Program-made: the position numbers and the translations under genes
Assembly (NCBI GenBank): GCA_040389185.1
Contig: JAZKAJ010000011.1
Coordinates: 1,033 to 65,032 of the forward strand
DNA from: Patescibacteria group bacterium
Lineage (GTDB): Bacteria; Patescibacteriota; Minisyncoccia; Phycocordibacterales; CAIRYW01
DNA length: 64,000 nucleotides
Direction of reading: 5' to 3'
The notes under the pieces: model-generated
What the model was told of the DNA's origin: nothing
The model's database searches: none
Seen by the model: only the letters and a program-made list of their open reading frames with translations
In this document: positions 3,322 through 29,479 of the stretch, piece by piece
Layout of the letters: each line of letters begins with the position of its first letter
Position numbering within the stretch: position 1 is the first letter of the stretch

Positions 3322-4836
3322 TTAGATATCTAATTTAACAGAACTAATCATCTGTTGAAGTTTTTGGTCTGTGTCCGCAGCTTTTTCTAAAGGACTTATA
3401 CCAGAAAATTCTACCGCAATCTTTCCAAGAACAATCGAGTATCTTTTGTCAACAACTTCAACCCCATTCTTACCCTTAAGTCTTATCTCAATAACTGCCA
3501 CATTCTTGTTTTGAGGCCATTTTGCAAAAGTGTAGTTTTCGATTGCGCCACTTTGTTTTTTCTTTTCAAGTAAATTTCTGTAGTCTGTTTGGAGTGTGTA
3601 AGAATCAGGCCCTTCTTCTTTTAGATTGGTTATAAAAAGATCCGCATAACTATCTGTTTCATCAGAATTTTTGCTACTAAAAGTTGCGTCTGCACCATAT
3701 GATGAATTGGCCGCATATCTTTTCCAGTCCTTGTCATAATTAAACGCGATGCCGAACCCTCGAAATAGATTCACGTCTTTTCCATCAACTGTTATTTGTT
3801 GGGTTCCTCCTCCTTGTTCTGCATTTATTTGATCTGAGAAACTTTGCATATCTGCCTGGTTTGATTGTTCATTCATTGTTGCCGCCTTTGTCGCTTTTTC
3901 TTTCATACTGTCTAGAGAATTTTGTGTTGTGACAGTTATAAAATACATAAGTCCAATCCAAAGTCCAAGTCCGATGCAGGCAATGAGTATTGGTTTTTGG
4001 AGACTATTTCCAATCTCTCCCTCAGACTTAGTCTTCAGTGTTTTGTATATTGTTGAAGATACCGAAATCATGGACACTGCGCTTACAACACCTATTAGGA
4101 ATGTGAGGATTCCTGACACCCATAAAACAGCCCTTTGGAGTATTTGAATTGAACTTAGTATTTTTGCAATAACTGTCAATATGAAAGTTGCCGCCACAGA
4201 AAAAATAATCATAAGGATCATACTAAAGATTAGGACTGCGAACACTCTAAACCAGACTCCTTTTACATAGTAGATACTTTTAAGAATTGATTGCTTTACT
4301 GTTGTTCCTTGATCTATGAACAAAAACATAGCAAGGGATAAGGCAACAAAATAATAGATTCCCGGTATCAAGAAAACAACTGCTGAAAAAGTTGAAATAA
4401 AATACGCACTGATTAGTAGCCCCAAGACTTTAATTTTTTGTTTGAAACCTCCTCGGAGTGAATTAATAAGTGACATCTTTTCCTCTGCAAGACTTAATTT
4501 TATTAGTGAAGTTAAGAGGAACGAAAGCAATATGAGCATGATCCCACCGAATACAACCATTGATGCAAAAAATATTGTAAATGTTGGAGAACCTACTGAG
4601 CCGATGGTATTAATAATCCCTAAAGTATAAACATAATACAGATCCGACAGATGTGCCCCGGCTAACAAAATATTTATAATAATGGTCAAAAGGAGGCCAA
4701 TAATATAAAAAAGTCCAAAAGCGGCTATTGCGAGTGCTTTCGGAGTAAAGTTATGAAATATATTTTTAATTGAGTTTCTTACTGTTTCCCAGACTTTTAA
4801 TGTTATTGGTGCTGGGGCGTTTGTTATTTCGTCCAT
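3322..4836 (-). CDS. hypothetical polytopic membrane protein with a C-terminal extracytoplasmic domain
   Basis: 504-aa ORF; about 8 hydrophobic helices in the N-terminal 300 aa, then a soluble Asn/Asp/Lys-rich domain. Confidence 0.45.
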   Translation of the reverse strand: MDEITNAPAPITLKVWETVRNSIKNIFHNFTPKALAIAAFGLFYIIGLLLTIIINILLAGAHLSDLYYVYTLGIINTIGSVGSPTFTIFFASMVVFGGIMLILLSFLLTSLIKLSLAEEKMSLINSLRGGFKQKIKVLGLLISAYFISTFSAVVFLIPGIYYFVALSLAMFLFIDQGTTVKQSILKSIYYVKGVWFRVFAVLIFSMILMIIFSVAATFILTVIAKILSSIQILQRAVLWVSGILTFLIGVVSAVSMISVSSTIYKTLKTKSEGEIGNSLQKPILIACIGLGLWIGLMYFITVTTQNSLDSMKEKATKAATMNEQSNQADMQSFSDQINAEQGGGTQQITVDGKDVNLFRGFGIAFNYDKDWKRYAANSSYGADATFSSKNSDETDSYADLFITNLKEEGPDSYTLQTDYRNLLEKKKQSGAIENYTFAKWPQNKNVAVIEIRLKGKNGVEVVDKRYSIVLGKIAVEFSGISPLEKAADTDQKLQQMISSVKLDI

Positions 4837-5685: not shown

Positions 5686-8079
5686 ATGGCCACTAAATCT
5701 AAAAAAGACACAAAAACCCTCGTCCTCCTCGATGTTCACGCGATTATTCATCGTGCGTATCATGCCCTTCCAGATTTTGCTTCGAGCAAAGGTGAGCCAA
5801 CAGGTGCACTCTATGGGCTTTGCCTCATGCTCTTTAAACTTATTGAAGATTTCAAGCCGGACTATATCGCTGCTTGTTTTGATCTTCCGAAGCCCACTTA
5901 TAGACACCTAGCATACGACGGGTACAAAGCGGGACGAAAGAAAACTGATGATGAACTCGTCTCACAGCTTATTCGTTCGCGAGAAGTGTTTCGTGCATTT
6001 TCAATTCCAGAATACGACAAAGAAGGATTCGAAGCTGATGATATGCTCGGAACTATTGTTGAACAGATGAAAGATGAGAAGGGAATCGAGATTGTGATTG
6101 CATCAGGAGATATGGATACAATGCAGCTCATTGAAGGTGATCGGGTCAAAGTGTTTACTCTTCGCAAAGGTGTTAAAGACACTGTGACTTATGGCGAGAA
6201 AGAAGTGGTAGAGCGATTTGGATTTAAACCGTTACAGCTCACTGACTATAAAGGACTTCGAGGAGATACATCAGATAATATTATAGGGATCAAAGGTATT
6301 GGAGAAAAGACTGCAACAACGCTCATTCAAGAATTTGGAACGATAGAAAATATGTATGCAAAAATTGAAGCCGGCAAGAAAGAAGAATTCAAAAAGATCG
6401 GAGTGACTGAGAGAATTTACGAACTTCTCGCAAACAACAAAGACGAAGCGGTGTTTTCAAAAATGCTTGCGACAATTCGTCGTGATGCGCCAATCGATTT
6501 CAAACTCCCTGACTCAACCTGGAGAGAACATATTGAGACAGAAAAGGTCAAAAACATGTTGAAATCATTCGATTTTCGAAGCATGGTGCCACGAGTTGAT
6601 GTGGTATTCGGAGATACGAGCTTAGAAGCTGAGGAGCTTAGAAGCTTAGAAGGAAAAACAAAAAAACAGGAGGAGGTTGCTCATAATTTATCTGATGAAG
6701 AAATTGAGAAACTAAAGATTGCAACATTTGTTTTGAATTCAACAATCAGTAATCCGGAACTTTCTGATGTGATCGCCTTTTCTGAACACGAGGATGCAGA
6801 TGAGGCCAAGAAAAATATTTTAAATGAAATCAAAAAGAAGGGTCTTGAATTTGTATACGAAAAGATCGAACTTCCGCTCATTCCGATTATCAAAAAAATG
6901 CATGATATTGGTGTAGCTATTGATGCTGACTATCTCAAAAAGCTCGCTAAGGACTATCATAAAGAACTCGACAAAATAGACAAGAAAATATTTGAACATG
7001 CAGGACACGAGTTCAATGTTGATTCACCAAAGCAGCTCGGTGTTGTGCTTTATGATGAATTGAATCTCGTCGGCAAGAACATGAAAAAGACCGCGGGTGG
7101 TGCGAAGTCGACCAAAGAAAGTGAACTCGAAAAACTTAAAGACTTACACCCGATCATTTCACTCATCATGGAACATAGAGAGCTCGCAAAACTTCTGGGC
7201 ACCTATATCGATGTGATCCCAACACTTCTTGATGATAATGGACGACTCCATCCAACATTCATTCAGACAGGTGCTGCGACAGGGAGAATGGCTTCAAAGG
7301 ATCCTGGAGTACAAAATATTCCAATTAAAACAGAGCTCGGACGAGCGATCAGAAATGCATTCATAGCAGAAAAAGGATTCAAGCTTTGTGCCTTTGACTA
7401 CTCACAGATCGAGCTTCGAATCGCGGCAATACTTTCTGACGATCAAAAACTCCAAGAGATTTTCAAAAGTGGAGAAGATGTTCATTCAGGAGTAGCATCA
7501 CAAGTCTTTGGAGTACCGATAGAGGAAGTAACTAAAGATATGCGACGAAAAGCGAAGGTGATTAACTTCGGGATCCTTTATGGAATGGGAGTAAATGCGC
7601 TCAAAAGTAATCTCGGAAGTACTCGAGAAGAGGCGCAGAGATTCTATGATGATTACTTCAAAACATTCTCGACTCTCGCAGAATATCTCGAAAACACCAA
7701 GAAAGAGGCTGCCAAAAACGGTTTTGTTACAACGATGTATGGAAGAAGAAGATATTTTGAAGGTATCAAATCCCACCTTCCGTTTATCCGTGCCGCTGCA
7801 GAGCGAATGGCTATCAATGCGCCGATACAGGGGACACAGGCAGATATTGTAAAACTCGCAATGACTGAGATAGATCGGATTTATGGGGATGATAAAGATG
7901 TGAGACTTCTCCTTCAAATTCACGACGAGCTTATCTATGAGATTAAAGAAAGTAAGGTGAAGGAGGTGTCAGAAAAAATAAAAAGTGTGATGGAAAACAT
8001 AATGGATCCAAAGATGACAAAAGGTGTGCCTATCGTAGCCAATGCATCATGTGGAGATGATTGGGGAAACTTGAGGTAA
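5686..8079 (+). CDS. polA: DNA polymerase I (5' nuclease plus family A polymerase domain; short or absent 3'-5' exonuclease region)
   Basis: 797 aa. N-terminal 5'-3' exonuclease motifs (LLDVHAIIHRAYHA, GIKGIGEKTA); polymerase motifs DYSQIELRI, RRKAKVINFGILYG and QIHDELIYE. Confidence 0.9.
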   Translation: MATKSKKDTKTLVLLDVHAIIHRAYHALPDFASSKGEPTGALYGLCLMLFKLIEDFKPDYIAACFDLPKPTYRHLAYDGYKAGRKKTDDELVSQLIRSREVFRAFSIPEYDKEGFEADDMLGTIVEQMKDEKGIEIVIASGDMDTMQLIEGDRVKVFTLRKGVKDTVTYGEKEVVERFGFKPLQLTDYKGLRGDTSDNIIGIKGIGEKTATTLIQEFGTIENMYAKIEAGKKEEFKKIGVTERIYELLANNKDEAVFSKMLATIRRDAPIDFKLPDSTWREHIETEKVKNMLKSFDFRSMVPRVDVVFGDTSLEAEELRSLEGKTKKQEEVAHNLSDEEIEKLKIATFVLNSTISNPELSDVIAFSEHEDADEAKKNILNEIKKKGLEFVYEKIELPLIPIIKKMHDIGVAIDADYLKKLAKDYHKELDKIDKKIFEHAGHEFNVDSPKQLGVVLYDELNLVGKNMKKTAGGAKSTKESELEKLKDLHPIISLIMEHRELAKLLGTYIDVIPTLLDDNGRLHPTFIQTGAATGRMASKDPGVQNIPIKTELGRAIRNAFIAEKGFKLCAFDYSQIELRIAAILSDDQKLQEIFKSGEDVHSGVASQVFGVPIEEVTKDMRRKAKVINFGILYGMGVNALKSNLGSTREEAQRFYDDYFKTFSTLAEYLENTKKEAAKNGFVTTMYGRRRYFEGIKSHLPFIRAAAERMAINAPIQGTQADIVKLAMTEIDRIYGDDKDVRLLLQIHDELIYEIKESKVKEVSEKIKSVMENIMDPKMTKGVPIVANASCGDDWGNLR

Positions 8080-11066: not shown

Positions 11067-11069
11067 ACA

Positions 11070-11264
11070 TCATCCAGTTGGACCGCGAGTACGCTTATCG
11101 AACCTTACAGGTTCAGTACACCTTTTGGTGATTTTGTTTCGTTCCTCACAAAATCAGCTCAAAAGGTTTTCGATTCCAACACGCAAGTGCCCCACACTTG
11201 CTTGGACGCACAAAAATACAAAAACCTCAGACGTTGGACGTCTGAGGTTTTTGTATTTTTGTGC
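11070..11264 (+). repeat. tRNA 3'-half mimic structured element, type-2 copy D (partner tRNA-Lys), ending in a 26-bp perfect hairpin/terminator
   Basis: The conserved block gttggaccgcgagtacgcttatcgaaccttacaggttcagtacaccttttgg is shared with 52770-52823 in the opposite orientation. ggttttcgattccaac matches the tRNA-Lys T-arm and ttggacgcac matches the tRNA-Lys acceptor 3' strand. The hairpin gcacaaaaatacaaaaacctcagacg/cgtctgaggtttttgtatttttgtgc spans 11208-11264. Confidence 0.6.
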
Positions 11265-11388
11265 CCCAACTCAGTCTCGGAATATAGGTAATGAGACCAT
11301 GTAAGGGTTCTTTGAGTGATTTCGATATAGAAAATTTAACCCAGTCGGTCGGGGTTTTGTTTTTTCAAAATGAGACAAATGAGACAGT

Positions 11389-12183
11389 TCAAGACTTTTT
11401 CTTGCGTTTCATTTTCACACGTTTTTTTGCTTCCCTGCGAGCATATCGGTTTTCCAATCTCTTCTTCTCCTCAGCTTCACGCTCTGCCATTTCCTCAGGT
11501 GACACAACTCTCATGTGTTCCATGATTCGATATCCTTTAAGATGTTCGAATGGATCAACAAATCTGTACCAAGGTTCAGAATGATACCAAGTTTCTCCAT
11601 TCCTATCTTCTTTTACCATATACGATTTCACCATTTTCCTTTGCGGTAAGAAATCTTTGTTATCTTTTATTAAAAAGATATGGCAATGAACTCGGCTACC
11701 ATCCATAACCGTTCTTGGTTTGATGATTCCTGCTTCGATCCATTCTTTTAGTTTCTTTTTGTTCACATTAAAATCACTTTCCATGTCATATTCTGAATAC
11801 CGATTGTCTCTATTCTTTGCAATGGAAGGAAGGATTTCTTTTCTATTTATTGCTTTCTGGCATATAGAACATTTGATTCCATATTGGTCATACCAGTTTT
11901 CATTTTCCTGAGTTGAGTTACCGCAGATTGCACAACTGTATCCTCGACTTTCTAATATATACCCTTTAGGAAATTCTCTAAGTTTGTTTTTTCTTCTTCG
12001 ATCTTCTAGTGCAAATTCATAAATTAAGTTTGCATACCTTCCAAGATTAGCAAAAGCTTCCTCAGCTTCATCCCAAGTAACTTCTTTGCCACCTTCTCTC
12101 TCCATAATATTCTTCATCTCCTGAACATGTTCTTCGTGAGACTTACTCATATTATAATTATAACTCCATAATATTTTTTTCAT
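11389..12183 (-). CDS. hypothetical zinc-finger protein with lysine/arginine-rich C-terminal tail
   Basis: 264 aa; CxxC...CxxC (CAICGNS...CSICQK); C-terminus EKKRLENRYARREAKKRVKMKRKKKS. TGAGACAG motifs lie at both ends of the gene. Confidence 0.45.
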   Translation of the reverse strand: MKKILWSYNYNMSKSHEEHVQEMKNIMEREGGKEVTWDEAEEAFANLGRYANLIYEFALEDRRRKNKLREFPKGYILESRGYSCAICGNSTQENENWYDQYGIKCSICQKAINRKEILPSIAKNRDNRYSEYDMESDFNVNKKKLKEWIEAGIIKPRTVMDGSRVHCHIFLIKDNKDFLPQRKMVKSYMVKEDRNGETWYHSEPWYRFVDPFEHLKGYRIMEHMRVVSPEEMAEREAEEKKRLENRYARREAKKRVKMKRKKKS

Positions 12184-12344
12184 AAATGAGACAGTCTATG
12201 TGAGTAGTTTAAATCTGAGCTCGTAAAAATCATCTTATTTCATAAGATGATTTAATTGAATTGAACCTATAAATAAAAAATAATTTTACTTAGTTTGACT
12301 TTGATGTCGGAACAGCTAGTATTACCCCGGAAGCGCTCGAGTGA

Positions 12345-13721
12345 GTGCTAAACTCGCTCCTTGAGAGCAAAACAAACAGAAACACGACTATGATATCTAA
12401 CCTTAGAGGTCAGTCAAAACTGCGTTGCATGCAATGTGGGGCAGTTGTGCCCTTGTATGGAACAGTGCAGTTCACCTGCGGAAAATGCGGTGGATTGTAT
12501 GATGTCGAACATGAGTTCGGTCACATCACAAAAGGAGGACCCGATTATTGGAAAACAATCTTCGACGTTCGCACAAAACCATCGGGCAACGTCCTGTATT
12601 CCTCTGGGGTGTGGCGGTTCCATGAACTCATCATGCCCTCTCTCGATCCACAGGAAATTGTGTCGCTTGGCGAAGGTGTGTTCCAGATACTTTCTGCGGG
12701 CAAAAAGGTTCGTGACTGGGTCGGTGGCAACACCGATTTGTGGATCGTTCCTGAAGGTCTCACTCAAACTGGTTCCTTCAAGGATCACGGTGGCACAGTT
12801 GCCATGAGTGTTGCGAAAGCAATGGGCATCAAAACCATAGCTTGTGCATCCACTGGCGACACATCCGCAATGGCAGCCGCATACGCCGCCGCAGCAGGAT
12901 TGAAGTGTGTTGTTGTCTTGCCTGCGGGTAAGGTCACCAATGTGCAACTCGCTCAACCTGTCGCTCATGGTGCACGAATCATTACGATCCCCGGATCGTT
13001 TGATGACTGCATGCGCGTCGTTCGGGAACTCTGCGAAGCAGGCAGGGTTTTTCCAATCAACAGCATCAATCCGACGCGAATCGAAGGTCATCAAGCAACC
13101 GTCTTCCTTATGGCACAGTTCCTCCAATGGCAACTACCTGATGTGTTTGTGGTTCCTGTCGGTAACGGCAGCAACTCCTCATCCATCGGCAAAGCCATCC
13201 GTCTCCTCAAACAACTCGGTCTCGTCGCAGACAAGGAATGCAAGATTATCGGTGTCCAATCCGACTCTGCAAATCCGTTGGCGACAAGTTGGGAAAGTGT
13301 TCAAAGACTGGGACGGGTTGATATTGAGAAATGGCGCTCGGTCTATCAGCCGCGGAAAGACCTCGGAGAAACAGCTGCTACAGCGGCACGGATCGGAAAT
13401 CCGGTTTCTTGGGCCAAAGTCATGCGCGAAATCTGTGCCTCCGATGGTGCGGTGCTTACAGTGACTGAAGCTGAGCTTCTCGAAGCAACCCGAACACTCG
13501 GATCTTCTGGATTCTCTGGCTGTCCGCAAACTGGGACAGCTCTCGCGGGTCTCCGGCAAGCGATTGCTCGTGGATTCGTTAAACCAGGTGCGACGGTGTC
13601 GTTGGTGTCAACGGCAACCTCACTTAAGTTCCCTGATGTGGCGATGGAGTTTGGGGGTGACTTGATCACAAGTGCAGGGTCTTGCGACACTGAGGATATC
13701 GCGAGTATCATGGGAATCTGA
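12345..13721 (+). CDS. thrC: threonine synthase-like PLP enzyme with N-terminal zinc ribbon; markedly higher GC than surrounding DNA
   Basis: Zn ribbon CMQCG...CGKCG, PLP-lysine motif TGSFKDHGGT, glycine-rich loop VPVGNGSN. Local GC is visibly about 50-55% against roughly 35-40% elsewhere, and several long ORFs on other frames overlap it, as expected for high GC. The start may be the internal ATG at 12390. Confidence 0.7.
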   Translation: MLNSLLESKTNRNTTMISNLRGQSKLRCMQCGAVVPLYGTVQFTCGKCGGLYDVEHEFGHITKGGPDYWKTIFDVRTKPSGNVLYSSGVWRFHELIMPSLDPQEIVSLGEGVFQILSAGKKVRDWVGGNTDLWIVPEGLTQTGSFKDHGGTVAMSVAKAMGIKTIACASTGDTSAMAAAYAAAAGLKCVVVLPAGKVTNVQLAQPVAHGARIITIPGSFDDCMRVVRELCEAGRVFPINSINPTRIEGHQATVFLMAQFLQWQLPDVFVVPVGNGSNSSSIGKAIRLLKQLGLVADKECKIIGVQSDSANPLATSWESVQRLGRVDIEKWRSVYQPRKDLGETAATAARIGNPVSWAKVMREICASDGAVLTVTEAELLEATRTLGSSGFSGCPQTGTALAGLRQAIARGFVKPGATVSLVSTATSLKFPDVAMEFGGDLITSAGSCDTEDIASIMGI

Positions 13722-13742
13722 TGGAGTGCTCTGACGACAATG

Positions 13743-13777
13743 GGGAGGTGGTGCTTACGGGCCCACCTCCTTTTTTA
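13743..13777 (+). terminator. intrinsic terminator
   Basis: ggaggtgg-tgcttacgggc-ccacctcc followed by TTTTTT directly after the thrC-like stop. Confidence 0.6.
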
Positions 13778-14125
13778 TTTAAATTCCTTATCCGCAGTTC
13801 TAAACATAATAACCATCATTATAATAAATGCTACACCGATAGATATTGCAATTCCTTTTTCTGTAGAAGTTGAGACATCAAGTGCAAATTGAAATATAGC
13901 TATAATCATTTGAACGATAGCAAAGAATGCAATGACTTTTGAAAATTTTTTGTTTGATGCATCTAAATCAACCATTGTTTTGTTTGTCCTCAGTGTTGCC
14001 TTTATCTGAAGCTCATTCATCTTCATTTGTTGTTTAGAAAAAGCAATCCCTGTAGAAATTTCTCCAATAGAATCGAGTGCGTCTAATATATCTTTATCTT
14101 CGGGTAAATATTGTTCTTTTTTCAT
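13775..14125 (-). CDS. hypothetical small membrane protein
   Basis: 116-aa ORF with two C-terminal TM helices. Confidence 0.35.
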   Translation of the reverse strand: MKKEQYLPEDKDILDALDSIGEISTGIAFSKQQMKMNELQIKATLRTNKTMVDLDASNKKFSKVIAFFAIVQMIIAIFQFALDVSTSTEKGIAISIGVAFIIMMVIMFRTADKEFK

Positions 14126-14373
14126 AAATTATATTGTAACATTTTGAGCTTTTATGGAAAATTTCAATTTACTTTTTTCTGTCCATAAATACCCTTATTT
14201 CCCAACACATTTTCGTGTGGATAAATTTACGAGATTCCCACAAAACGCATTTTGAATATATTAGAATGATGTTAAGGAAGAGGAGTTGTGAAATTACAAG
14301 AGTGTTAGTTTAAAGAACATTCCTGTAACTTTAGAAGCCTTCCTACAAATTAATAGTTAGTAAAAATAAAAGA

Positions 14374-15720
14374 ATGAAAAAACTTGATGAAAAGTTGGTT
14401 GTTAAGTATGTCCAAATTTCTGAGATTAAGCCCTCAGAATATAATCCACGAAAGTGGGATGCGGAACAGAAGGAATCGCTTAAGCAAAGTCTTACTCAAT
14501 TCGGTATAGTTGATCCACTGGTTTGTAATAGTGCAGAAGGGAGAATGAATATTCTCCTTGGTGGTCACTTCAGATTGGAAGTGTTGAAGGAACTTGAATA
14601 TAAAGAAGTTCCAGTGGTTTACATCAATATCTCAGATATTGAAAAAGAGAAGGAACTCAATATCAGATTAAACAAGAATACGGGAGAATTCGATTTAGAT
14701 CTGTTGGCAGAATTTGATGAGGCACTCCTTTCTAATATTGGATTTGATTCAGAAGAACTCGATACCATCTTCAACAATGATGAGGACGAAGAGGAACAAT
14801 TTGATCTCAAGAAAGAACTAGAGAAACTTAATATCAATGAAATCAAAGTAAAGAAGGGTGACGTATATGAACTCGATGGATCAAGACTTATGTGTGGCGA
14901 CAGCACGATTGAAGAAGATATGCTTTCCCTTATGGGTGAGCATAAGGCAGACATGGTAATGACTGATCCGCCATATATTCTTGATTACCTGCATGGTAAG
15001 ACAAGGCACGGAGAAGCAACAGAAGGGTTTGGATCAAAGAAAAACAGAAGATATCTTGAGACAGATGTTTTGCCTGATAACTTCACAGAACTTTGGATGG
15101 GAAATATACAAAAAATACAGAAAGAAAACTTTCATATTGTTTGCTACGAGAACTGGAAGAATATTCGTACTATCTGGAACGAGATGGAGAAGCATTGGAA
15201 AGTCCGCAATATGATTGTCTGGCATCTTCCTAATCGTGTACAGGGATATTCAGGAAAGTACAAACTCTTTAACAAGTACGATATTGCCATGGTTGGTACG
15301 ACTGAAGACGAAGTGAATCTCAACACTGAAAAGGAGGATGAGATTGTTGATAACGAGTATGAGACAGCACTCTATGCAACATCAGGATCACCACATTGGG
15401 AAAGTTACGGAGCTGGTAAGAAGATTTGTCCAACTGATTTTATTGAGTTTAAAGCCGCGGATGAGAAATCTTCAGGACAAGGAATCATCTTCGGTACAAA
15501 ACCGCTTGAGATCCTTATGCCTTACATAAAGATACTAACAGAGAGGGATGATCTTGTAGTAGAGCCTTTTGGTGGAAGTGGGTCGACATTAATAGCATCC
15601 ATCAAAATGAAAAGAAGATGCTTTCTTATGGAGAAATCTCCAGTCTATGTTGAGGTAATCCTTCGAAGATGGAGAATACAGACTGGTAAGGAGCCGGTAA
15701 AAATTTATGAGAGAGCATAA
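14374..15720 (+). CDS. ParB-like nuclease domain fused to a beta-class N6-adenine/N4-cytosine DNA methyltransferase
   Basis: The N-terminal ParB/Srx-like region (VQISEIKPSEYNPRKWD...GGHFRLEVL) precedes catalytic motif IV DPPY, which in turn precedes SAM motif I FGGSGST. That order (IV before I) marks the beta class. Such fusions are typical of phage or island orphan methyltransferases. Confidence 0.8.
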   Translation: MKKLDEKLVVKYVQISEIKPSEYNPRKWDAEQKESLKQSLTQFGIVDPLVCNSAEGRMNILLGGHFRLEVLKELEYKEVPVVYINISDIEKEKELNIRLNKNTGEFDLDLLAEFDEALLSNIGFDSEELDTIFNNDEDEEEQFDLKKELEKLNINEIKVKKGDVYELDGSRLMCGDSTIEEDMLSLMGEHKADMVMTDPPYILDYLHGKTRHGEATEGFGSKKNRRYLETDVLPDNFTELWMGNIQKIQKENFHIVCYENWKNIRTIWNEMEKHWKVRNMIVWHLPNRVQGYSGKYKLFNKYDIAMVGTTEDEVNLNTEKEDEIVDNEYETALYATSGSPHWESYGAGKKICPTDFIEFKAADEKSSGQGIIFGTKPLEILMPYIKILTERDDLVVEPFGGSGSTLIASIKMKRRCFLMEKSPVYVEVILRRWRIQTGKEPVKIYERA

Positions 15721-16096
15721 AGAAGATAAGATAAGATTTCTTGAGGAACTGCAGAAGATAGGAAATGTATGGACTGCGTGTGGAAGAATTAAGATTCCAA
15801 GATCGACAATATATCGTTGGTTAAAGACTGATCCAGAATTTAATGAATTGGCCCGAAAAGCAATGAAAATCGGTCGAATCAGCCTAAGTGAAATGACAGA
15901 GGGTGTAGTAATTAAGAAAGCTATTGTAGAAAAAGATTTGAAAGCTTCAATGTATATTCTGAGCCACAATCATCCTAGGTATATAAAACGAGAGCCACTG
16001 CCACCTAAAGATGAAAATCAGGCAATGAATTTGGCTGATCTAATTAAGAAGAGTATAAAAAAGGATGGAACGAATGAGGATTCTTTCGGACTGTGA
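15707..16096 (+). CDS. HTH-domain protein (phage terminase small-subunit-like or regulator)
   Basis: 129 aa; helix-turn-helix IPRSTIYRWLKTDPEF; overlaps the methyltransferase stop by 14 nt (translational coupling). Confidence 0.35.
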   Translation: MREHKEDKIRFLEELQKIGNVWTACGRIKIPRSTIYRWLKTDPEFNELARKAMKIGRISLSEMTEGVVIKKAIVEKDLKASMYILSHNHPRYIKREPLPPKDENQAMNLADLIKKSIKKDGTNEDSFGL

Positions 16097-16158
16097 TTAA
16101 TTACAGATCTTTATTTAAAAGAACCAGTAGTTCATACTACTGGTTCTTTTAAATAAAT

Positions 16159-16806
16159 TTACTTCACTATCGAACATCCATTCACAAGCACATTACCAAG
16201 CTTTCCAGAGAGCTCACCTTTAAGAGTTAATCGATCTCCCTTGGATACTGTTGCCAATTGAGTCTCATCAGCTTTTGAGAACATACACTGAACATTCTCA
16301 AAAGAATACTGGCTTCCGTCGGTAAGTGAAATGTATGGAGTATCAACAATGTCTTTGCCAATGGTATCAACAAGGCCTGACACTTCGACAATATTGTTCT
16401 TGTACTTTGCATCAGCAGAAACTTCATTTGCTTTGTAGTCAGCAAGAAGTTTTGTTGCTGTTACTTTGATTGCTGGTTGTTCTGGTACTGGCACAGACAC
16501 ACTTTTATCTGTTACTACTGACGGCATAACATTACTTGATGAAGTTGTACCTATTATCACAAAGAGTACTAAGACAAGAAAGACTTTCAATCCTCGAGAA
16601 AGATTGATATGTAATTTCTCCTTTATTAATTTGTTACTCGGTGGCAATACAATGATTGCGATAAGGAGAAACAAAATTCCTGAGAGAGGCTTAGTAAAAA
16701 TTGTACTTACTGCTGTAAGTAACATGACTACACCAAATACCCAAGAGAATACAGAACCTAGAGTTATGTTTTTAGTCTTAACTGAAGACTGGTTGTTGTT
16801 TTCCAT
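16159..16806 (-). CDS. membrane-anchored OB-fold protein (tRNA_anti-like / BOF-type domain)
   Basis: 215 aa; N-terminal TM, then YKANEVSADAKYKNNIVEVSGLVD...GDRLTLKGELSG typical of OB-fold anticodon-binding-like domains. Confidence 0.4.
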   Translation of the reverse strand: MENNNQSSVKTKNITLGSVFSWVFGVVMLLTAVSTIFTKPLSGILFLLIAIIVLPPSNKLIKEKLHINLSRGLKVFLVLVLFVIIGTTSSSNVMPSVVTDKSVSVPVPEQPAIKVTATKLLADYKANEVSADAKYKNNIVEVSGLVDTIGKDIVDTPYISLTDGSQYSFENVQCMFSKADETQLATVSKGDRLTLKGELSGKLGNVLVNGCSIVK

Positions 16807-17070
16807 TGTAGCGAGTTTTTATAACATGACAGGTAGACAAAAAGCCCTCCGCCATGGCGATGGTCCGAAGACCACCCACATCCGTTTCCAGATATGACTC
16901 GCTACAAGTACCCTGACGAAGGGTTTTTTATCTTGTAGCGAGCTTTTCGACCATATCCTTTAAAACTTTTAAGGGTTTCAAAGGGGTTAGGTCTCTTATT
17001 AAGTTGTACTAAACAATAATACCAAGATTATAGGTATTAGTCAGTACCTTAGCTCGGATTAGGAATTTTA

Positions 17071-17091
17071 GGTAATCGAGTTACCAACAGC
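17071..17091. promoter_or_regulatory. candidate recombinase half-site GGTAA-tcgag-TTACCAACAG (shares an 11-mer with 18505-18515)
   Basis: gttaccaacag at 17080-17090 is identical to 18505-18515; small inverted repeat ggtaa/ttacc. Confidence 0.3.
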
Positions 17092-17478
17092 TTAGAATTG
17101 TGCTTTTTGACCCCAATTACCATCATCCCAGGCGGGTTTATCCGTTCCTGTGATATGAAATTCTCCATCATCCATCATTTCGCCGTAATAGACAGTGCCT
17201 GGTAGCCAGGCGGTTTCTCCAAGAAATTCTGATATAGCTTCTCCAGACTTCTGATAAACATAATTTATAATATTGTCTCCAGAATAATCACGAACATGAG
17301 TGTAAGGCATTACAGGGTTTGGAATTCCCATAAGAAAAAGGGTTGTCTTTTCTTTACCTGTCACTTCTTTTAATTCTGATCGTAGAAGAAACCGCAATCC
17401 TGTTCCAAGATACTCACCAGTACTCAACATATAACTTTTACTTGCAGTTTTAATTTCTGTTTCTTTATTCTCACTCAT
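17092..17478 (-). CDS. hypothetical protein
   Basis: 128-aa ORF; no recognisable motif. Confidence 0.35.
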   Translation of the reverse strand: MSENKETEIKTASKSYMLSTGEYLGTGLRFLLRSELKEVTGKEKTTLFLMGIPNPVMPYTHVRDYSGDNIINYVYQKSGEAISEFLGETAWLPGTVYYGEMMDDGEFHITGTDKPAWDDGNWGQKAQF

Positions 17479-17516
17479 TGTTTAATGATATTTAATATCG
17501 GTTAAATTGATAATGG

Positions 17517-17894
17517 TTATTTTTTAAGCTTCAATATCTGTGCCCAGCCTTTCTCATGAATGTCCTTTGCAAGAATAACTAATCGTCCCGCAAAAAAAGC
17601 AACACCCATACCCAAGACAGATAAACAAAGACCCGAAGCGAATGGATTTGTAAGTAAATTTGATAGACGTGGGTCAAGTTTTTCTAATCCACCATAAGCA
17701 GCAATCAGGGCGATTCCCCAGAATGCACTAAATCCTATATATTCGAATTCACTAAGTTTTTTATCCAAGTTTACTGTTTTCCTGTAAGACCACACAGTTA
17801 TAAAACCTGTGAAGATAATATAGAAGTAAACATATGCGTCATCTGTTGGATTCATATTTTTTAATTTTCTAATAATTATGACCCGTTCCTCCAA
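17517..17894 (-). CDS. hypothetical membrane protein
   Basis: 125 aa, three hydrophobic helices. Confidence 0.35.
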   Translation of the reverse strand: MEERVIIIRKLKNMNPTDDAYVYFYIIFTGFITVWSYRKTVNLDKKLSEFEYIGFSAFWGIALIAAYGGLEKLDPRLSNLLTNPFASGLCLSVLGMGVAFFAGRLVILAKDIHEKGWAQILKLKK

Positions 17895-17918
17895 ATTAAG
17901 GAGGAACGGGTTCTGTCA

Positions 17919-18203
17919 CTATCTCGCTGGAACTAAATCACCACACCAAGCTGTATATTGTAAGACAAGAATATTTGATGTCTTACCTGTACTGTTGGAT
18001 GACGTCTTTGCAAGAATGTGGACCTGCTGACAAGTTGCTGTAGTGTTTAGGGTGTATTCGGCAGTCGGAAGACTGTATCGAGCACCGTTACCTGCAGTGA
18101 TTGTCTTAACGAATCCTGCACGCTGCATTGCAGTATGAAGGATGTTATAATCGTTAGGATAGATAGCGTTGTGCAATTCTACTCTGATAAAGTATGAATT
18201 CAT
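17919..18203 (-). CDS. hypothetical small protein
   Basis: 94 aa (FIRVELHNAIYPNDYNILHTAMQRAGF...); first gene of a three-gene minus-strand block. Confidence 0.35.
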   Translation of the reverse strand: MNSYFIRVELHNAIYPNDYNILHTAMQRAGFVKTITAGNGARYSLPTAEYTLNTTATCQQVHILAKTSSNSTGKTSNILVLQYTAWCGDLVPAR

Positions 18204-18241
18204 TTTGTTTTCTAAGATTGGTTAATAAAATCGACCGTTAA

Positions 18242-18275
18242 CAAAAAGCGATGACCCCTCGGTCATCGCTTTTTG
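18242..18275. terminator. bidirectional intrinsic terminator
   Basis: aagcgatgacc-cctc-ggtcatcgctt flanked by AAAAA and TTTTT. Confidence 0.55.
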
Positions 18276-18483
18276 TATGGAATTTTTTTAGAGTAAATAA
18301 CTACTTATGATTCTATAATTTTAGTGATGATCGAAGGCTGTGAAGTTTGTTGTTTTGTTATGTTATGTTTTTTGCCTTCGAGATTGATGTCTCGTACGAA
18401 TATTGATCTATGTAGTTTTCAATGAACTTAACGATAATATATCACTATTTTTTATTTGCACAAACCGGGTAAAGTTTATATCC

Positions 18484-18515
18484 CTGTTGGTAAATTGGGG
18501 ATAAGTTACCAACAG
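18484..18515. promoter_or_regulatory. 32-bp imperfect palindrome CTGTTGGTAA-N12-GTTACCAACAG, candidate serine-recombinase site
   Basis: Perfect 10-bp inverted arms; lies about 30 nt upstream of the recombinase ORF; 11-mer shared with 17080-17090. Confidence 0.45.
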
Positions 18516-18541
18516 TCCAACCTGGACTCTCAAGAGGGGTT

Positions 18542-19879
18542 GTGTCATTCATTGAGTATATGAGTAGCGCAACAAATGCACCATTAGGAACAACAGCTAA
18601 AATAGTAATACCTGTAAAGGTGAAATACTGTCTTTACGCTAGAAAAAGCACAGAATCGGAAGAAGCTCAGATTCTTTCGATTGATAGCCAAATAAGGGAA
18701 ATGCAACAAATGGCAGACAGGGAGTGTTTGGAGATAGTTGAAATAAAGAGAGAATCACACTCCGCCAAAGAAGCAGGACAACGACCTGTGTTTAATGAGA
18801 TTGTAGAAGAAATTAAACTTGGAAAATTTAATGGAATTCTGACTTGGGCGGCAGATAGAATAAGTCGTAATGCGGGGGATCTTGGAAGAATTGTAGATCT
18901 AATGGATGCTGAGAAGCTTCATGATATTAGAACCTATAGCCAAAGATTCACCAACAATCCCAATGAGAAATTTCTTCTTATGATTCTTGGCTCACAAGCA
19001 AAGCTTGAGAATGACAATAAGGTGTTGAATGTAAAAAGAGGACTTAAAGCACGGTGTGAGATGGGACTCTGGCCTTGTGTACCGCCGACTGGATATTTAA
19101 GAAACAAGAATGTTGATAATAAATGTTTACCTGAAATAGATTCATATAGAGGAGCAATAATTAAGAAATGTTTTGAAAAAATAGCTTATGAAAAATGGTC
19201 AGGTAGAAAAGTATATAAATGGTTAAGAGACGAAGTAAACTTTAAAACAAAGACAGGTAAAATATATACTTTGAGCAATCTATATCTTACGTTACGGAAT
19301 CACTTCTATTACGGCACTTTTGAATATCCAAAAGACAGCGGTCATTGGTATACAGGTAAACATACACCCCTCATAACCAAAGAGTTGTTTGATAAGGTAC
19401 AGGAAGGAATAAGTAATTACAATGATCGAAACGAACACAAGGAATTCGCTTTTACAAAGATAATGTCTTGCGGACTGTGTGGATCTGGGATTACTGCTGA
19501 TGAGAAATTTAAGAAACTGGCGAATGGCAGTGTTCAGAGATATGTGTATTATGGTTGCACAAGATTTAATGATCGTGATTGTAAATCAGGATGGATCAAT
19601 GAAGTTGATCTTATAGAACAATTAGCTAATCTAATGGGCAATATTGATCTCGATGAAATTGGCATGAAGGAAAAGATAAAAGAAGAAATAGAACGACATA
19701 AGAAGTTTAGTTTGGGGCTACTAGGCGAAAAAGCTAAAGTAATTAAGACAACTGATATTGATATTCGAAATTATGCCAAATATGTTCTCCGCGACGGTGC
19801 CTCATGGGAGAAAAGAGAGTTATTGGGATGCTTAAGAAGTAAGATTTCCCTAAATGCAAAAAAGATAGAGATTCACTAA
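18542..19879 (+). CDS. large serine recombinase (resolvase catalytic domain plus recombinase domain plus zinc ribbon)
   Basis: Catalytic-serine motif CLYARKSTESEE; GDLGRIVDLMD and LLMILGSQAKLENDN regions; C-terminal Cys cluster CGLCGSG...YYGC. The true start is probably the ATG at 18560. Confidence 0.85.
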   Translation: MSFIEYMSSATNAPLGTTAKIVIPVKVKYCLYARKSTESEEAQILSIDSQIREMQQMADRECLEIVEIKRESHSAKEAGQRPVFNEIVEEIKLGKFNGILTWAADRISRNAGDLGRIVDLMDAEKLHDIRTYSQRFTNNPNEKFLLMILGSQAKLENDNKVLNVKRGLKARCEMGLWPCVPPTGYLRNKNVDNKCLPEIDSYRGAIIKKCFEKIAYEKWSGRKVYKWLRDEVNFKTKTGKIYTLSNLYLTLRNHFYYGTFEYPKDSGHWYTGKHTPLITKELFDKVQEGISNYNDRNEHKEFAFTKIMSCGLCGSGITADEKFKKLANGSVQRYVYYGCTRFNDRDCKSGWINEVDLIEQLANLMGNIDLDEIGMKEKIKEEIERHKKFSLGLLGEKAKVIKTTDIDIRNYAKYVLRDGASWEKRELLGCLRSKISLNAKKIEIH

Positions 19880-19888
19880 GCCGGTAAG

Positions 19889-20128
19889 CTATTCCATTGC
19901 ATTCTTTTTGATTCTATACCATTCTCTTACATCAAGTTGTAAATAATCTTTACAGTCCAAAAGAATTTTAGATAACTCTTTATGTCTATACATATCTTCT
20001 AGCGGTGGCGCTGGTCGAATATCTCGTCGAATATTGGAATCCCTATCATAAACTTGAAACGCATAATTTATTGTGGTATCAATTTTTTTATACTCTTCAT
20101 AAAGCTTTAAGTATTCTTTTTCTTCCAT
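19889..20128 (-). CDS. hypothetical small protein (third gene of the nuclease operon)
   Basis: 79 aa; 17-nt gap from the upstream gene on the same strand. Confidence 0.4.
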   Translation of the reverse strand: MEEKEYLKLYEEYKKIDTTINYAFQVYDRDSNIRRDIRPAPPLEDMYRHKELSKILLDCKDYLQLDVREWYRIKKNAME

Positions 20129-20145
20129 GCAATTTATGTTATTGA

Positions 20146-20463
20146 TTATTTAATCGAATAAGCGAACTGAAGCATGCCGTTTGTTTGCGGATAAAAATCA
20201 AATAAAGTCTCAAAATTATCTTGATTTTCAGATGTCTGGAATTTGACATACTTTAAATTGGTCTTTTCTTCAAACCACTTTTTTAAAACTTCATCAACCT
20301 TTATATCTTTTGTTTGCTTCTTGAAGAGTCTGGATAGAAATACTATGTCAGCACAAACAATAATTTTACATAAAATACTACCATTATCGTCTTCAATAAA
20401 ACTCCTTTGCCAAAAAACATCAGCATGCCAATCCTCTTTAATATTTCCTAGAATTAATTTCAC
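20146..20463 (-). CDS. hypothetical small protein (second gene of the nuclease operon)
   Basis: 105 aa; its start overlaps the upstream gene's stop by 4 nt (ATGA), implying translational coupling. Confidence 0.4.
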   Translation of the reverse strand: MKLILGNIKEDWHADVFWQRSFIEDDNGSILCKIIVCADIVFLSRLFKKQTKDIKVDEVLKKWFEEKTNLKYVKFQTSENQDNFETLFDFYPQTNGMLQFAYSIK

Positions 20464-21683
20464 AGTTTTGATCTTAAATTTTTAAGGTTTTCGAGTAATT
20501 CATCATAGAGAATGAAGTTTATATTTTTCAATGATGATCCAAGCTTCCTGAAATCAGCTGACTCTTTTTTATTTTTGAACTGCTTGCTTGTACCAGCAAT
20601 AATATATCCTCGCGGTCTTACCACCTGTATATCAATACCTTTTTTATTTTTTACAGCACGAATATATGCGTCAGAATTATGAACGATCTCATCAGTGTAA
20701 TTTTCTATTTGAGCAATAGCCATTGAAACATCCGGCTTCCAATAATAATTATCATGATCTTTATCAAAACTAAGCAATGAAACATCATGTTTCTTTATTT
20801 CAAAAACATCAACAAATCCATATACATCCACTAATACGAAGTCGGGGTAGCTAACACTAATACTTACATTTTGTTTTTCAATTGCAGTGACATAATTGGC
20901 CATAAATCGAAACACCTTTTCACTAAGAAATTTTTGCCAATCATTTTCGGAAATGCTTTTTTTAGCCAAATTTGCCTCAAACTCTTTAATAACTTCATCA
21001 AGATAAATTCTATCTGTAGTAGTTTTAGCGCTTTTAATTAGTGTAGCGCGCCCATTTTTTATTCCTCGTTTTTTACCTTTAAGAGAACCTTCAAATATTT
21101 TCGGGAAGAAGTTATTAAGCGACTCAAGATCCTCCTCATTTAGCCTTTGAGCTACTTTCTTACGTCGTAAGAGAGCAGCAATCTCACCTGCCTTATACTC
21201 ATCAAAATCGTCAGTAGAAATCTTTATGTCTTTTGGAAACTTAGTACTTAAAAAAGATGCTACAGCACTTCGTAACTCATTATTACTGTCTTCGTTAATA
21301 CGACCAAGTTTAATAAGAAGATTTTTTATGTCTAAAAGCGGCAGAACAACAGAAACCTTATGCTTTCCTTTATGAACCTTCTTTGTCTTCTTGGAAACAA
21401 TAAGTTCAAGAACTTTGGATCCCGCTAAATGCTCCTTCAGAGCAGTAAGGAGGAAAATTCCTTTTTTTCCAAAACCATAACCTTTTTTATTAAGATAAAG
21501 TCCTGAAGGAAGACCTTGATAACCTTCGAGAGTAATACTTGATACTTGTTTTGATTTTGCAGGTTGTAAATAGTAGATGGTCTTATCTGATTTAGGATAT
21601 ACCTCATATACACAAAAGTCAGGTTTATCAGACGCATAATGACGTTCTGGAATTTCAATCTTTTTATCTTTTTTTGCAACCAT
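20460..21683 (-). CDS. PD-(D/E)xK nuclease-domain protein, Shedu (DUF4263)-like or RecB/Cas4-like C-terminal domain, lysine-rich N-terminal region
   Basis: 407 aa. The C-terminal region shows the ordered motifs YPDFVLVD, then DVFEIKK ((D/E)xK), then AIAQIENY (QxxxY), as in RecB-family and Shedu-type nucleases. The N-terminal 280 aa are K-rich with no recognised domain. The Shedu assignment is made from motifs only. Confidence 0.5.
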   Translation of the reverse strand: MVAKKDKKIEIPERHYASDKPDFCVYEVYPKSDKTIYYLQPAKSKQVSSITLEGYQGLPSGLYLNKKGYGFGKKGIFLLTALKEHLAGSKVLELIVSKKTKKVHKGKHKVSVVLPLLDIKNLLIKLGRINEDSNNELRSAVASFLSTKFPKDIKISTDDFDEYKAGEIAALLRRKKVAQRLNEEDLESLNNFFPKIFEGSLKGKKRGIKNGRATLIKSAKTTTDRIYLDEVIKEFEANLAKKSISENDWQKFLSEKVFRFMANYVTAIEKQNVSISVSYPDFVLVDVYGFVDVFEIKKHDVSLLSFDKDHDNYYWKPDVSMAIAQIENYTDEIVHNSDAYIRAVKNKKGIDIQVVRPRGYIIAGTSKQFKNKKESADFRKLGSSLKNINFILYDELLENLKNLRSKL

Positions 21684-21790
21684 ATATAAGCTACTTTATA
21701 CCATAAAAATAGCCCAATTTCATTGGTTAAAATAACTTAAACTATAGACTATGTTGGACTTGACCCAACTTAGTAGGTCTCACATGTGGG

Positions 21791-21863
21791 TGCGTCCAGT
21801 TGGAATCGAACCAACGACCGTCTCCTTAAAAGGGAGCTGCTCTACCGACTGAGCTATGGACGC
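21791..21863 (-). tRNA. tRNA-Lys (anticodon UUU)
   Basis: Cloverleaf: acceptor GCGTCCA/TGGACGC; D-arm GCTC-AGTCGGTA-GAGC; anticodon loop CTTTTAA; T-arm GTTGG-TTCGATT-CCAAC. CCA is not encoded. Confidence 0.85.
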
Positions 21864-21924
21864 AATACGTGAAAATATATCAGAAAATCAGAAAAAGTCC
21901 ACTTTCACGAGTGAGTAGTTCTTA

Positions 21925-24717: not shown

Positions 24718-24818
24718 CTGCTTAATCTACACTTTTATTAAGGTTTTGCAAATCAATTTAATAAAAAATGCCCGAGGATGAAAATCCTTGGACATTTTGA
24801 CAATCTTTTTGACCCACT

Positions 24819-25469
24819 TTACTCTTCGCTGTCTTCCGAATGCCTGAGGCCGAAGTGCTTAAGAAAATGGAACAATTCAAGGACTCGCTTTTCAGGTGTA
24901 TCATCACCTGGATGATGTCCTGTCTCGGGATGGTCTGTGAGATTAAGGTGTTTTTTCAAATCGGATGTAGGAGTAGCTGCGAGATCGCTTAGAGTATTCA
25001 CTCCTGCTTTGCAGAAGACTTTTGTCCAGCGAGAACCACAGAGTGAGAGTGGGAGTGCATCGATCGCCGCCTTTTCTTTTGGTCCAGGTTTGACGGTAAG
25101 TCCAAATTGCAGATTAAGATCGTAGATTGCTCTTTGTATTTCAGCGTGGCCGGGTGGACCAACGTTTGAAATGTAGAAATCTTGCGCCTTTCTCACAAGT
25201 TGTCCTAAAAGCAGATAACCATTCATCTTCAGTGCCTTCGCAACACGATTTGAGATGTCGTAAGTGACCACAAAATTGTCGATAGGCATGGCCAACAGAG
25301 CATCCATATCGATTGTTGAAGTAATCGCAATCTCGATATGCATTCCGCGTGCCATTTTCGTTGTGAGCACCACTGTTTCATTTGAACTTATAATCTTCTG
25401 CTGTTTGAGCCATCTCTGGATGAGTGTTTGTAGTTGGCGGCTCTTTTTTGTGAACAGTTCGTGTTTCAT
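24819..25469 (-). CDS. hypothetical protein with two helix-hairpin-helix-like motifs
   Basis: 216 aa; HhH-like segments ISNRVAKALKMNGYLLLGQLV and RWTKVFCKAGVNTLSDL. Confidence 0.3.
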   Translation of the reverse strand: MKHELFTKKSRQLQTLIQRWLKQQKIISSNETVVLTTKMARGMHIEIAITSTIDMDALLAMPIDNFVVTYDISNRVAKALKMNGYLLLGQLVRKAQDFYISNVGPPGHAEIQRAIYDLNLQFGLTVKPGPKEKAAIDALPLSLCGSRWTKVFCKAGVNTLSDLAATPTSDLKKHLNLTDHPETGHHPGDDTPEKRVLELFHFLKHFGLRHSEDSEE

Positions 25470-25581
25470 GGATGTGTTTTCGGTGGGTTGATTGTGAAGG
25501 AGCAGGAGTTTAAATTTTCCTCACTATTTTCAAACCAAAAATAGCATCCAGACTGTAGTAAGTCAAACTATCTAAATTGCT

Positions 25582-29153: not shown

Positions 29154-29225
29154 CCCTTTGTCGTTCAATGGATAGGACACATCCTTGCGAAGGATGTGAT
29201 AGAGGTTCGATTCCTCTCGAAGGGA
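29154..29225 (+). tRNA. tRNA-Arg (anticodon GCG as read; unusual)
   Basis: Acceptor CCCTTTG/CGAAGGG (one G-U pair); D-arm GTTC-AATGGATA-GGAC; anticodon arm CATCC-TTGCGAA-GGATG; T-arm AGAGG-TTCGATT-CCTCT. Confidence 0.7.
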
Positions 29226-29446: not shown

Positions 29447-29479
29447 ATATTTCATTTTTATTTTTGCTATAATATCTAG

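Follow-up and report, generated by a model that had tools for sequence, protein, structure and literature searches.

A putative 10.5-kb serine-recombinase island adjoining the 3' end of tRNA-Lys in a Patescibacteria genome

The window analysed here is a stretch of 64,000 nucleotides from contig JAZKAJ010000011.1 (assembly GCA_040389185.1) of a Patescibacteria group bacterium. Its positions 11265-21789 hold genes for a large serine recombinase (LSR), a ParB_N-DNA methyltransferase fusion, a small helix-turn-helix (HTH) protein, a threonine-synthase-like enzyme and a Shedu unit, as well as a LOOT RNA, and end at an intact tRNA-Lys gene. This 10.5-kb segment is very probably an integrative island, which was inserted by its own LSR and is composed of a backbone and exchangeable cargo. 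A preliminary description, made from the sequence alone, had proposed a mobile or defence island with a serine recombinase at tRNA-Lys; empty sites in relatives, a tRNA-linked LSR family and a deviant composition uphold this core claim. The genes polA, holA and msrB and those for a DUF5666 protein and a 193-aa membrane protein (p193) lie on the left, while doxX, a PNPOx-like gene and spoU lie on the right; the position between core genes given in the preliminary description is upheld. The genomes nearest to the window are Patescibacteria metagenome-assembled genomes (MAGs), including one named 'Candidatus Taylorbacteria'.

A search of species-representative genomes with p193 yielded seven loci, including comparators with an empty site. 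The blastn alignments placed window 11096-11264 on positions 6964-7131 of locus L006 (88% identity) and window 21790-21901 on positions 7128-7239 (97% identity). These two ranges on L006 overlap by exactly four bases, GTGC; by this alignment, therefore, window 11265-21789 is a 10,525-bp insertion relative to L006, with GTGC at both junctions (11261-11264 and 21790-21793). The gene order in L006 is the 193-aa gene, two tandem copies of element D (a tRNA-Lys mimic, present once in the window at 11067-11207, plus strand), a palindromic terminator, tRNA-Lys on the minus strand, and the doxX side. The hairpin of the terminator runs directly into the 3' end of tRNA-Lys. Locus L005 likewise has no island, and the whole module of tRNA-Lys, hairpin and element D is inverted there. 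Thus, the empty tRNA-Lys site anticipated in the preliminary description is found at the syntenic position in both relatives.

The island is inserted directly after a palindromic bidirectional terminator (11208-11264), which is the host (B) arm on the left side. On the right, it meets the 3' end of the tRNA-Lys(UUU) gene (21787-21864, minus strand), the intact target (B' arm). Since element D and the terminator are both present at the empty site, they are host sequence; judging from the arrangement in L006, the terminator is common to element D and tRNA-Lys at that site. The preliminary description had bounded the island by element D and tRNA-Lys. Its left limit was set about 200 bp too far to the left, the true junction with respect to L006 being between 11264 and 11265. 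Its right limit agrees with ARAGORN and with the Rfam tRNA model (71.8 bits), with the refinement that the island itself stops at 21789 and the tRNA belongs to the host. The palindrome beside the left junction has 27-nt arms, which are 100% complementary. Removal of the island in silico joins TGGAC-GCAC-hairpin-GTGC to GTCCA, by which the palindrome gains five pairs and matches that of L006. The right GTGC is the complement of the last bases of the acceptor 3' strand of the tRNA together with the discriminator base and the following C. Of the att core repeats expected earlier, a 4-bp GTGC is present at both junctions and a long flanking direct repeat is absent: a repeat search gave no long repeats of the kind left by tyrosine integrases, and the sequence shared at the junctions is limited to GTGC, plus an internal 11-nt repeat, CCCAACTYAGT.

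The CCCA that follows tRNA-Lys after integration is provided by the island end (window 21787-21793). At the empty site of L006, tRNA-Lys runs into the A-rich terminator without an encoded CCA. Three of the four tRNA genes of the window that have no island also enter an A-rich terminator with no encoded CCA, and tRNA-Ser is followed by CCCA. The exact CCA is provided by the island end (TGGTGC or TGGTGA) in several related loci.

The left end of the island, or P' arm (11265-11387), was read from the sequence. It holds CCCAACTCAGT, followed by the T-arm-like TCGGAATAT, a hairpin TGAGACC-ATGTAA-GGGTTC at 11292-11310, a second motif AACCCAGTCGGTCGGGG at 11338-11354 and a tandem ATGAGACAA/ATGAGACAG repeat at 11370-11387. 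The same layout is kept in seven other loci (L016, L033, L038, L040, L044, L048, and L058), with GTGC or GTGA at the left junction of L016, L033, L038, L044, L048, and L058 and GTGA in the joint of L040 described below. These left ends start with a CCCAACTCAGT/CCTTCTCGAG motif directly behind GTGC/GTGA. A T-arm-like GGAAT/GATAGAACC comes next, then a CC-TGTAA-GG hairpin, after which the first motif is repeated and a short tandem repeat follows. The right end, or P arm (21764-21789), consists of CCCAACTTAGTAGGTCTCAC and ATGTGG. Motifs of the AGTAGGTCTCAC type are separated from the tRNA end by 4-7 nt in L014, L016, and L017, and related motifs occupy the same place in more than 15 further loci. 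These right-end motifs abutting tRNA ends vary in step with LSR similarity. The closest group (the window, L014, L016, and L017) ends in CYYAGTAGGTCTCAC-N4-7-(TG)GTGC, a second group in CCTTCTCGAGYGCTCRAACTAGCGCTC-N4-(TG)GTGA, and a third group in a CTCGGTCTC-type motif.

The distance from the core to GAATCGAAC is 9 nt in six tRNA junctions aligned by eye, and P' arms hold a similar motif. This fixed spacing offers a candidate target geometry common to different tRNAs. Both B' and P' hold a T-arm-like motif, both B and P are T-rich, and GTGC is compatible with a 2-bp crossover.

In L040, a contiguous joint of P arm, GTGA and P' arm (4548-4680) corresponds to the predicted attP sequence. Genes for IMPDH, a thioredoxin-reductase-like protein and a DedA-like protein adjoin this joint on the chromosome. 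An excised episome was considered for L040 and dismissed, as the housekeeping genes directly beside the joint make it chromosomal; it is probably a relic or a product of tandem or successive integrations. In L018 (11950-12010), an island end abuts a partial tRNA 3' fragment in direct orientation (beginning GTGCGCATGCCAAGACTCGAACC) just before an intact tRNA-Ile, which suggests that this site may have been used repeatedly.

The LSR (439 aa; 18560-19879, plus strand; reading frame open from GTG 18542) is the sole recombinase in the island. All three domains of large serine recombinases match, in agreement with the recombinase class named in the preliminary description: Resolvase (PF00239, E-value 6e-19), Recombinase (PF07508, 44.9 bits) and the zinc ribbon Zn_ribbon_recom (PF13408), which is borderline with 25.5 bits against a cut-off of 25.3. 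In an alignment with structure 9dxh of the SPbeta integrase, the YARKST nucleophile motif falls on YLRRS, and PHROG 95 (integrase) is matched with an E-value of 3e-56. The protein is remote from characterised enzymes: the nearest solved structure, 9dxh (E-value 2.6e-8), and the best NCBIfam match, CcrB (113 bits versus a 900-bit cut-off), are both very distant. It is 100% identical to P0001, an annotated Patescibacteria recombinase. Its close relatives comprise more than 120 protein clusters with 69-92% identity, mostly from unnamed metagenome contigs or Patescibacteria MAGs; PF07508 was present in all 120 relatives listed and PF13408 in nearly all of them.

For comparison, 58 loci encoding LSR relatives were fetched. 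Among the related loci, 24 contain a tRNA downstream of the LSR gene, and in each of them the first tRNA after the LSR is encoded on the other strand and points its 3' end at the LSR. The tRNAs at these 24 loci are those for Lys, Glu (two anticodons), Arg (three), Ile, Gln (two), Ser, Asp, and Gly, so that at least ten tRNA types are involved. These islands constitute a widespread, apparently undescribed family located at the ends of tRNA genes.

Three components of the island recur near the LSR in related loci, and we propose that they are the backbone of the family. One is the ParB_N-DNA methyltransferase fusion (14374-15720, plus strand), which combines PF02195 with PF01555 (N6_N4_Mtase), as recognised in the preliminary description, and matches PHROG 498 with an E-value of 2e-77. 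Homologues with 66-69% identity were found by tblastn upstream of the LSR in L017, L018, L029, and L031. Models for MTase_II and for orphan methyltransferases match the protein; searches of the island open reading frames (ORFs) with Pfam and PADLOC revealed no endonuclease family, so that the pairing of a type II restriction-modification system is not seen. The ParB_N fusion is typical of orphan methylases from phages and mobile elements. The next component is the small HTH protein of 129 aa (15707-16096, plus strand), with matches to HTH_23 and Sf6_terminase below cut-offs and to PHROG 4044 (E-value 2e-7). At least 12 loci have a homologue with 33-41% identity near or upstream of the LSR (tblastn). 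The HTH part of the earlier assignment stands, while the resemblance to a terminase small subunit (TerS) is weak and falls below the Pfam cut-off; the protein is a candidate regulator or directionality factor.

The third backbone component is the LOOT RNA (Rfam RF03000; 16859-16993, minus strand), which had been absent from the gene list of the preliminary description. It scores 76.4 bits versus a gathering threshold of 46.4 and covers model positions 1-121 of 121. LOOT was detected in half of the 20 other LSR loci scanned (L012, L017, L018, L023, L025, L027, L038, L039, L040, and L047). Its orientation is antisense to the LSR in every case, and five loci have it upstream of that gene, at 100-350 nt. 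This placement suggests a possible role in regulating or assisting recombination. The LOOT motif was reported by Weinberg et al. in 2017 (PMC5737381) and is noted for many 'cross-covariations' (PMC7657543); no functional description was found in the literature searched. The islands examined here add a consistent setting, in which LOOT is antisense to the LSR and often located just upstream of it.

Shedu, the thrC-like enzyme and several of the small genes look like exchangeable cargo. According to tblastn, the 264-aa protein, the thrC-like gene, the small ORFs and Shedu are without counterparts in the related LSR loci, leaving aside contig L070 from the same sample, the only LSR locus with homologues of the three small genes. 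Other islands carry metal efflux and DsbA genes (L013), a type I restriction-modification system (L014) or a Panacea toxin-antitoxin system (L016).

The cargo of the window begins with a 264-aa protein (11389-12183, minus strand) with a CxxC...CxxC arrangement and a Lys/Arg-rich C-terminus. The CxxC pairs and basic character fit the earlier label of a basic Zn-finger protein; no Pfam, PHROG or PADLOC family was assigned, a CxxC family was matched weakly, and the protein is absent from other LSR loci. The threonine-synthase-like pyridoxal-phosphate enzyme (12345-13721, plus strand; PALP, E-value 5e-50) passes the thrC equivalog TIGR00260 with 182.8 bits against a cut-off of 167.1. Its GC content is 52.1%, compared with 35.4% in the rest of the island, in agreement with the earlier description of a high-GC thrC-like gene. 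Import from another phylum was considered for this gene and rejected, its nearest relatives being threonine synthases of Patescibacteria (up to 70% identity, apart from the identical source record). The high GC content points to a possible donor within the phylum. The gene is followed by a 116-aa ORF (13775-14125, minus strand) with no Pfam, PHROG or PADLOC match.

The membrane OB-fold protein named in the preliminary description (tRNA_anti-like; 16159-16806, minus strand) matches PF12869 with an E-value of 1e-24 and PHROG 8545, which resembles superinfection-exclusion (Sie) proteins. Among the LSR loci, it has homologues in L038 and L050 only (tblastn). The three small genes noted earlier (17092-18203, minus strand) encode proteins of 128, 125, and 94 aa, the last of which can now be described as GhoS/YmfI-like, with 23.1 bits to PF11080 (cut-off 21) and a match to PHROG 8894. 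A three-gene operon of PD-(D/E)xK nuclease type had been proposed at the right end. The three-gene unit holds, and the assignment is corrected to a Shedu anti-phage defence system (19889-21683, minus strand), which consists of SduA (407 aa; 20460-21683) and two small downstream ORFs of 105 and 79 aa, the former overlapping sduA by 4 nt. SduA matches SduA_C (PF14082, DUF4263) with 91.2 bits against a cut-off of 27 (E-value 1e-25) and 15 PADLOC SduA models with E-values down to 2e-24.

Even without the thrC-like gene, the island is the most deviant 10.5-kb segment within the window by tetranucleotide distance (0.0144, compared with 0.0095 ± 0.0013 and a maximum of 0.0128 for controls; 0 of 86 were as high). 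The k-mer comparison suggested in the preliminary description thus sets the island apart from window controls, and composition modestly favours a foreign origin.

In the mechanism we propose, the LSR would recombine attP (P arm, GTGC, P' arm) with attB (terminator arm, GTGC, tRNA acceptor and T-arm). The host site would comprise the last bases of tRNA-Lys (GCAC on the tRNA strand) and the start of the terminator, and the island site a P arm ending in AGTAGGTCTCAC-N6 and a P' arm starting with CCCAACTCAGTCTCGGAAT and carrying the T-arm-like motif. The predicted junctions are TTTTTGTATTTTTGTGCGTCCAGTTGGAATCG for attB and GGTCTCACATGTGGGTGCCCCAACTCAGTCTCGG for attP. Strand exchange would take place within GTGC, where, from general knowledge of serine integrases, the non-palindromic GT and TG are the likelier crossover dinucleotides. 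With the crossover at the very end of the tRNA, as proposed, the tRNA is left intact; it has lost its native terminator, the place of which is taken by island DNA. The Shedu operon is co-oriented with tRNA-Lys and lies just downstream of it. The sequences themselves show the insertion relative to other species, its junctions, the conserved island termini and the association of the LSR family with tRNA 3' ends. We infer that the LSR is the catalyst, that the exact crossover dinucleotide lies within GTGC, and that the island is still able to move.

Several observations weigh against this reading. Neither a same-species empty-site allele nor a circular junction was found. Look-ups with p193, DUF5666 and SpoU gave only short contigs, which end within the tRNA (21797) or element D (11111); one of the conspecific contigs, from GCA_040384165.1, is 99.5-99.97% identical over the right flank and stops within tRNA-Lys at window 21797. 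These contig ends could stem from repeated k-mers. A look-up with the exact SduA protein, taken from its plausible ATG start, retrieved no record. Searches of IMG/VR with the attP junction patterns gave no match. The attachment sites of serine integrases are roughly 40-50 bp long, with imperfect dyad symmetry around a 2-bp crossover. The half-sites described here show no evident inverted repeat or dyad symmetry as in characterised LSR sites, and P and P' have in common the direct repeat CCCAACTYAGT. Between the LSR gene and the ends of the island lie 7.3 kb on the left and 1.9 kb on the right, so that the gene is adjacent to neither att site. Finally, no directionality factor, replication or transfer function was identified in the island.

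Two other explanations were weighed. The segment could be a decayed prophage or a satellite resembling phage-inducible chromosomal islands (PICI-like), packaged by a helper phage via the TerS-like protein, with the LSR as a phage-type integrase. The matches to PHROG 498, PHROG 4044 (E-value 2e-7), the Sie-like PHROG 8545, YmfI/PHROG 8894 and the integrase PHROG 95 are of phage type, and one LSR relative, L012, comes from an IMG/VR contig. However, Pfam and PHROG searches of the island ORFs (the latter covering all but the thrC-like gene, the 105-aa ORF and SduA among the 13 ORFs) detected no virion, replication or conjugation genes, which makes this explanation weak; capsid, portal, large terminase, tail, lysis, primase and repressor genes were all among those not found. 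Moreover, the resemblance to TerS extends over the HTH only and lies below the Pfam cut-off, no integrase in the phage collection searched reaches 30% identity with the LSR, and the cargo of related islands is non-viral. We therefore regard a phage or satellite origin as unlikely.

A still less probable explanation, to which we give very little credence, is that the segment was present in the ancestor and that L005 and L006 lost it by precise deletion, the LSR being a domesticated invertase or resolvase unconnected with the boundaries. The comparisons are indeed inter-species only, and modules of tRNA and element are inverted between species, so that local rearrangement does occur here. A deletion would, however, need to restore the perfect, extended palindrome at a 4-bp repeat, and end motifs of the same kind border LSR islands at many tRNAs whose surroundings are unrelated; in addition, the island is deviant in composition and none of the other loci has its cargo. 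A composite structure, with two islands in tandem, was also considered and rejected, there being no internal end motif upstream of the LSR. Insertion of an integrative island by its own LSR remains the preferred interpretation.

Serine-integrase islands, tRNA-linked islands and Shedu are known kinds of elements. The window LSR has the same set of Resolvase, Recombinase and zinc ribbon as the integrases of SPbeta (SprA/YokA), SCCmec (CcrA/B), phiC31, and Bxb1, and, like other serine-integrase elements, the island has a short common core and no long direct repeats. SCCmec inserts at the 3' end of rlmH without inactivating the gene. The island similarly occupies the 3' end of a conserved housekeeping gene, which it does not inactivate. 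Unlike known serine-integrase elements, the family described here targets the 3' ends of tRNA genes of many identities, its att arms have no obvious dyad symmetry and share a direct repeat, and it is confined mainly to contigs of Patescibacteria type.

In mycobacteria, tyrosine integrases use an attB that overlaps a tRNA, and serine integrases integrate elsewhere (PMC10654092). Tyrosine-type (P4-type) tRNA islands resemble the window island in their location on the 3' side of a tRNA that stays intact, in variable cargo and in the existence of empty sites in relatives. They differ in that the window island has a recombinase of the serine family and a 4-bp core only, with no duplicated tRNA 3' segment; its predicted crossover lies at the acceptor end and discriminator, whereas that of P4-type islands lies inside the T or anticodon arm. 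As in known Shedu systems, a protein with the SduA_C/DUF4263 domain appears to reside on a mobile island, here together with a methyltransferase and a Sie-like protein; the two small co-oriented ORFs after sduA are a difference.

What appears to be new is a coherent and abundant LSR family at tRNA 3' ends with a backbone of ParB-methyltransferase, HTH protein and LOOT. The term 'tRNA' does not occur in the full-text search listing of a large LSR survey (PMC10083194). Literature searches that combined serine recombinase, tRNA and CPR (candidate phyla radiation)/Patescibacteria returned nothing relevant, with incomplete coverage, such that an earlier description is possible. The family would represent a recurrent type of Patescibacteria island, in which the ends are defined and a backbone is combined with exchangeable cargo for defence or metabolism. 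To our knowledge, the mobile elements of Patescibacteria (CPR) are poorly charted. Serine integrases, whose known targets are for the most part idiosyncratic gene sequences, are valued as tools for genome engineering. An LSR family keyed to the tRNA 3' end and T-arm would, if confirmed, offer natural landing pads in almost any genome. The analysis also places LOOT, an RNA with no described function, in a defined genetic context and brings to light a family of covarying tRNA-mimic elements.

This family is that of element D, which scores 137.9 bits with covariance model R1 at 11082-11211. All five tRNA genes of the window are followed by a convergent element of ~130-190 nt, with which they share a palindromic terminator. 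Copies of the element D type lie in the window at 11067-11207 (plus), ~29271-29463 (minus), 48399-48530 (plus), 52683-52814 (minus), and ~60590-60730 (plus); others were found in L005, L006, L008, L038, L058, and L060. The 5' end of each element is an antisense copy of the 3' end of the tRNA next to it, and the 3' end reproduces, in the sense orientation, the T-loop, the 3' strand of the T-stem and the 3' strand of the acceptor, interrupted by a small hairpin. The earlier observation that element D mimics tRNA-Lys was therefore correct and extends to a family copying the acceptor and T-arm sequences of neighbouring tRNAs. Seven copies align into three helices, with 89.9% of the cells paired versus 69% after shuffling and at most 46% with partners slid, and compensatory changes are seen in 19 of the 31 pairs. 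The core of the hairpin loop, TTACA, is conserved; one of the seven copies has CTACA. Model R1, built from these seven copies, detects further ones in L060, L058, L005, and at window 29271-29463, and an Rfam scan of the element D region gave no family matches.

Element D was rejected as an att scar or island boundary, given its presence at empty sites and beside four other tRNAs. Homology between the P' arm and element D, considered because of the shared TGTAA/TTACA hairpin loop, was not supported, as R1 matches no P' arm at an E-value of 1 or below. L058 and L038 resemble the window in having the island inserted between hairpin and tRNA. In L060 (10870-11160), the island end (CTCGAGTGCTCGAACCAGCTCTCTCTTTT followed by GTGA) abuts the 5' end of a tRNA-Glu mimic instead of the tRNA. 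The mimic, the hairpin and tRNA-Glu all stay intact there, and the 5' end of the mimic is a 23-nt perfect copy of the end of the tRNA gene. Because the island end abuts the 5' end of the element in L060, the element can serve as an alternative attachment site.

We put forward only tentatively, as something rather doubtful, a joint system in Patescibacteria. It would combine LSRs whose attB is the near-universal acceptor end and T-arm of tRNAs, LOOT as a regulatory or recombination-associated RNA or DNA element of the islands, and host copies of the neighbouring tRNA 3' end in both orientations (the element D type), which would act as secondary or decoy att sites, as in L060, and maybe as mimics of pre-tRNA 3' ends.

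Modules of tRNA, terminator and mimic are inverted between species, with the flanking gene order unchanged. This applies to tRNA-Lys in L005 (10637-10885) and to tRNA-Arg(GCG) in L006 (13224-13430) as compared with window 29154-29463. Further to the right of the island, the 828 bp at window 24754-25581 are missing from the conspecific contig L001, both sides being 99.5-99.97% identical; on this comparison, they are a second strain-level indel. The segment carries a 216-aa ORF (24819-25469, minus strand), whose sole match, a weak one, is RpoA-CTD-like.

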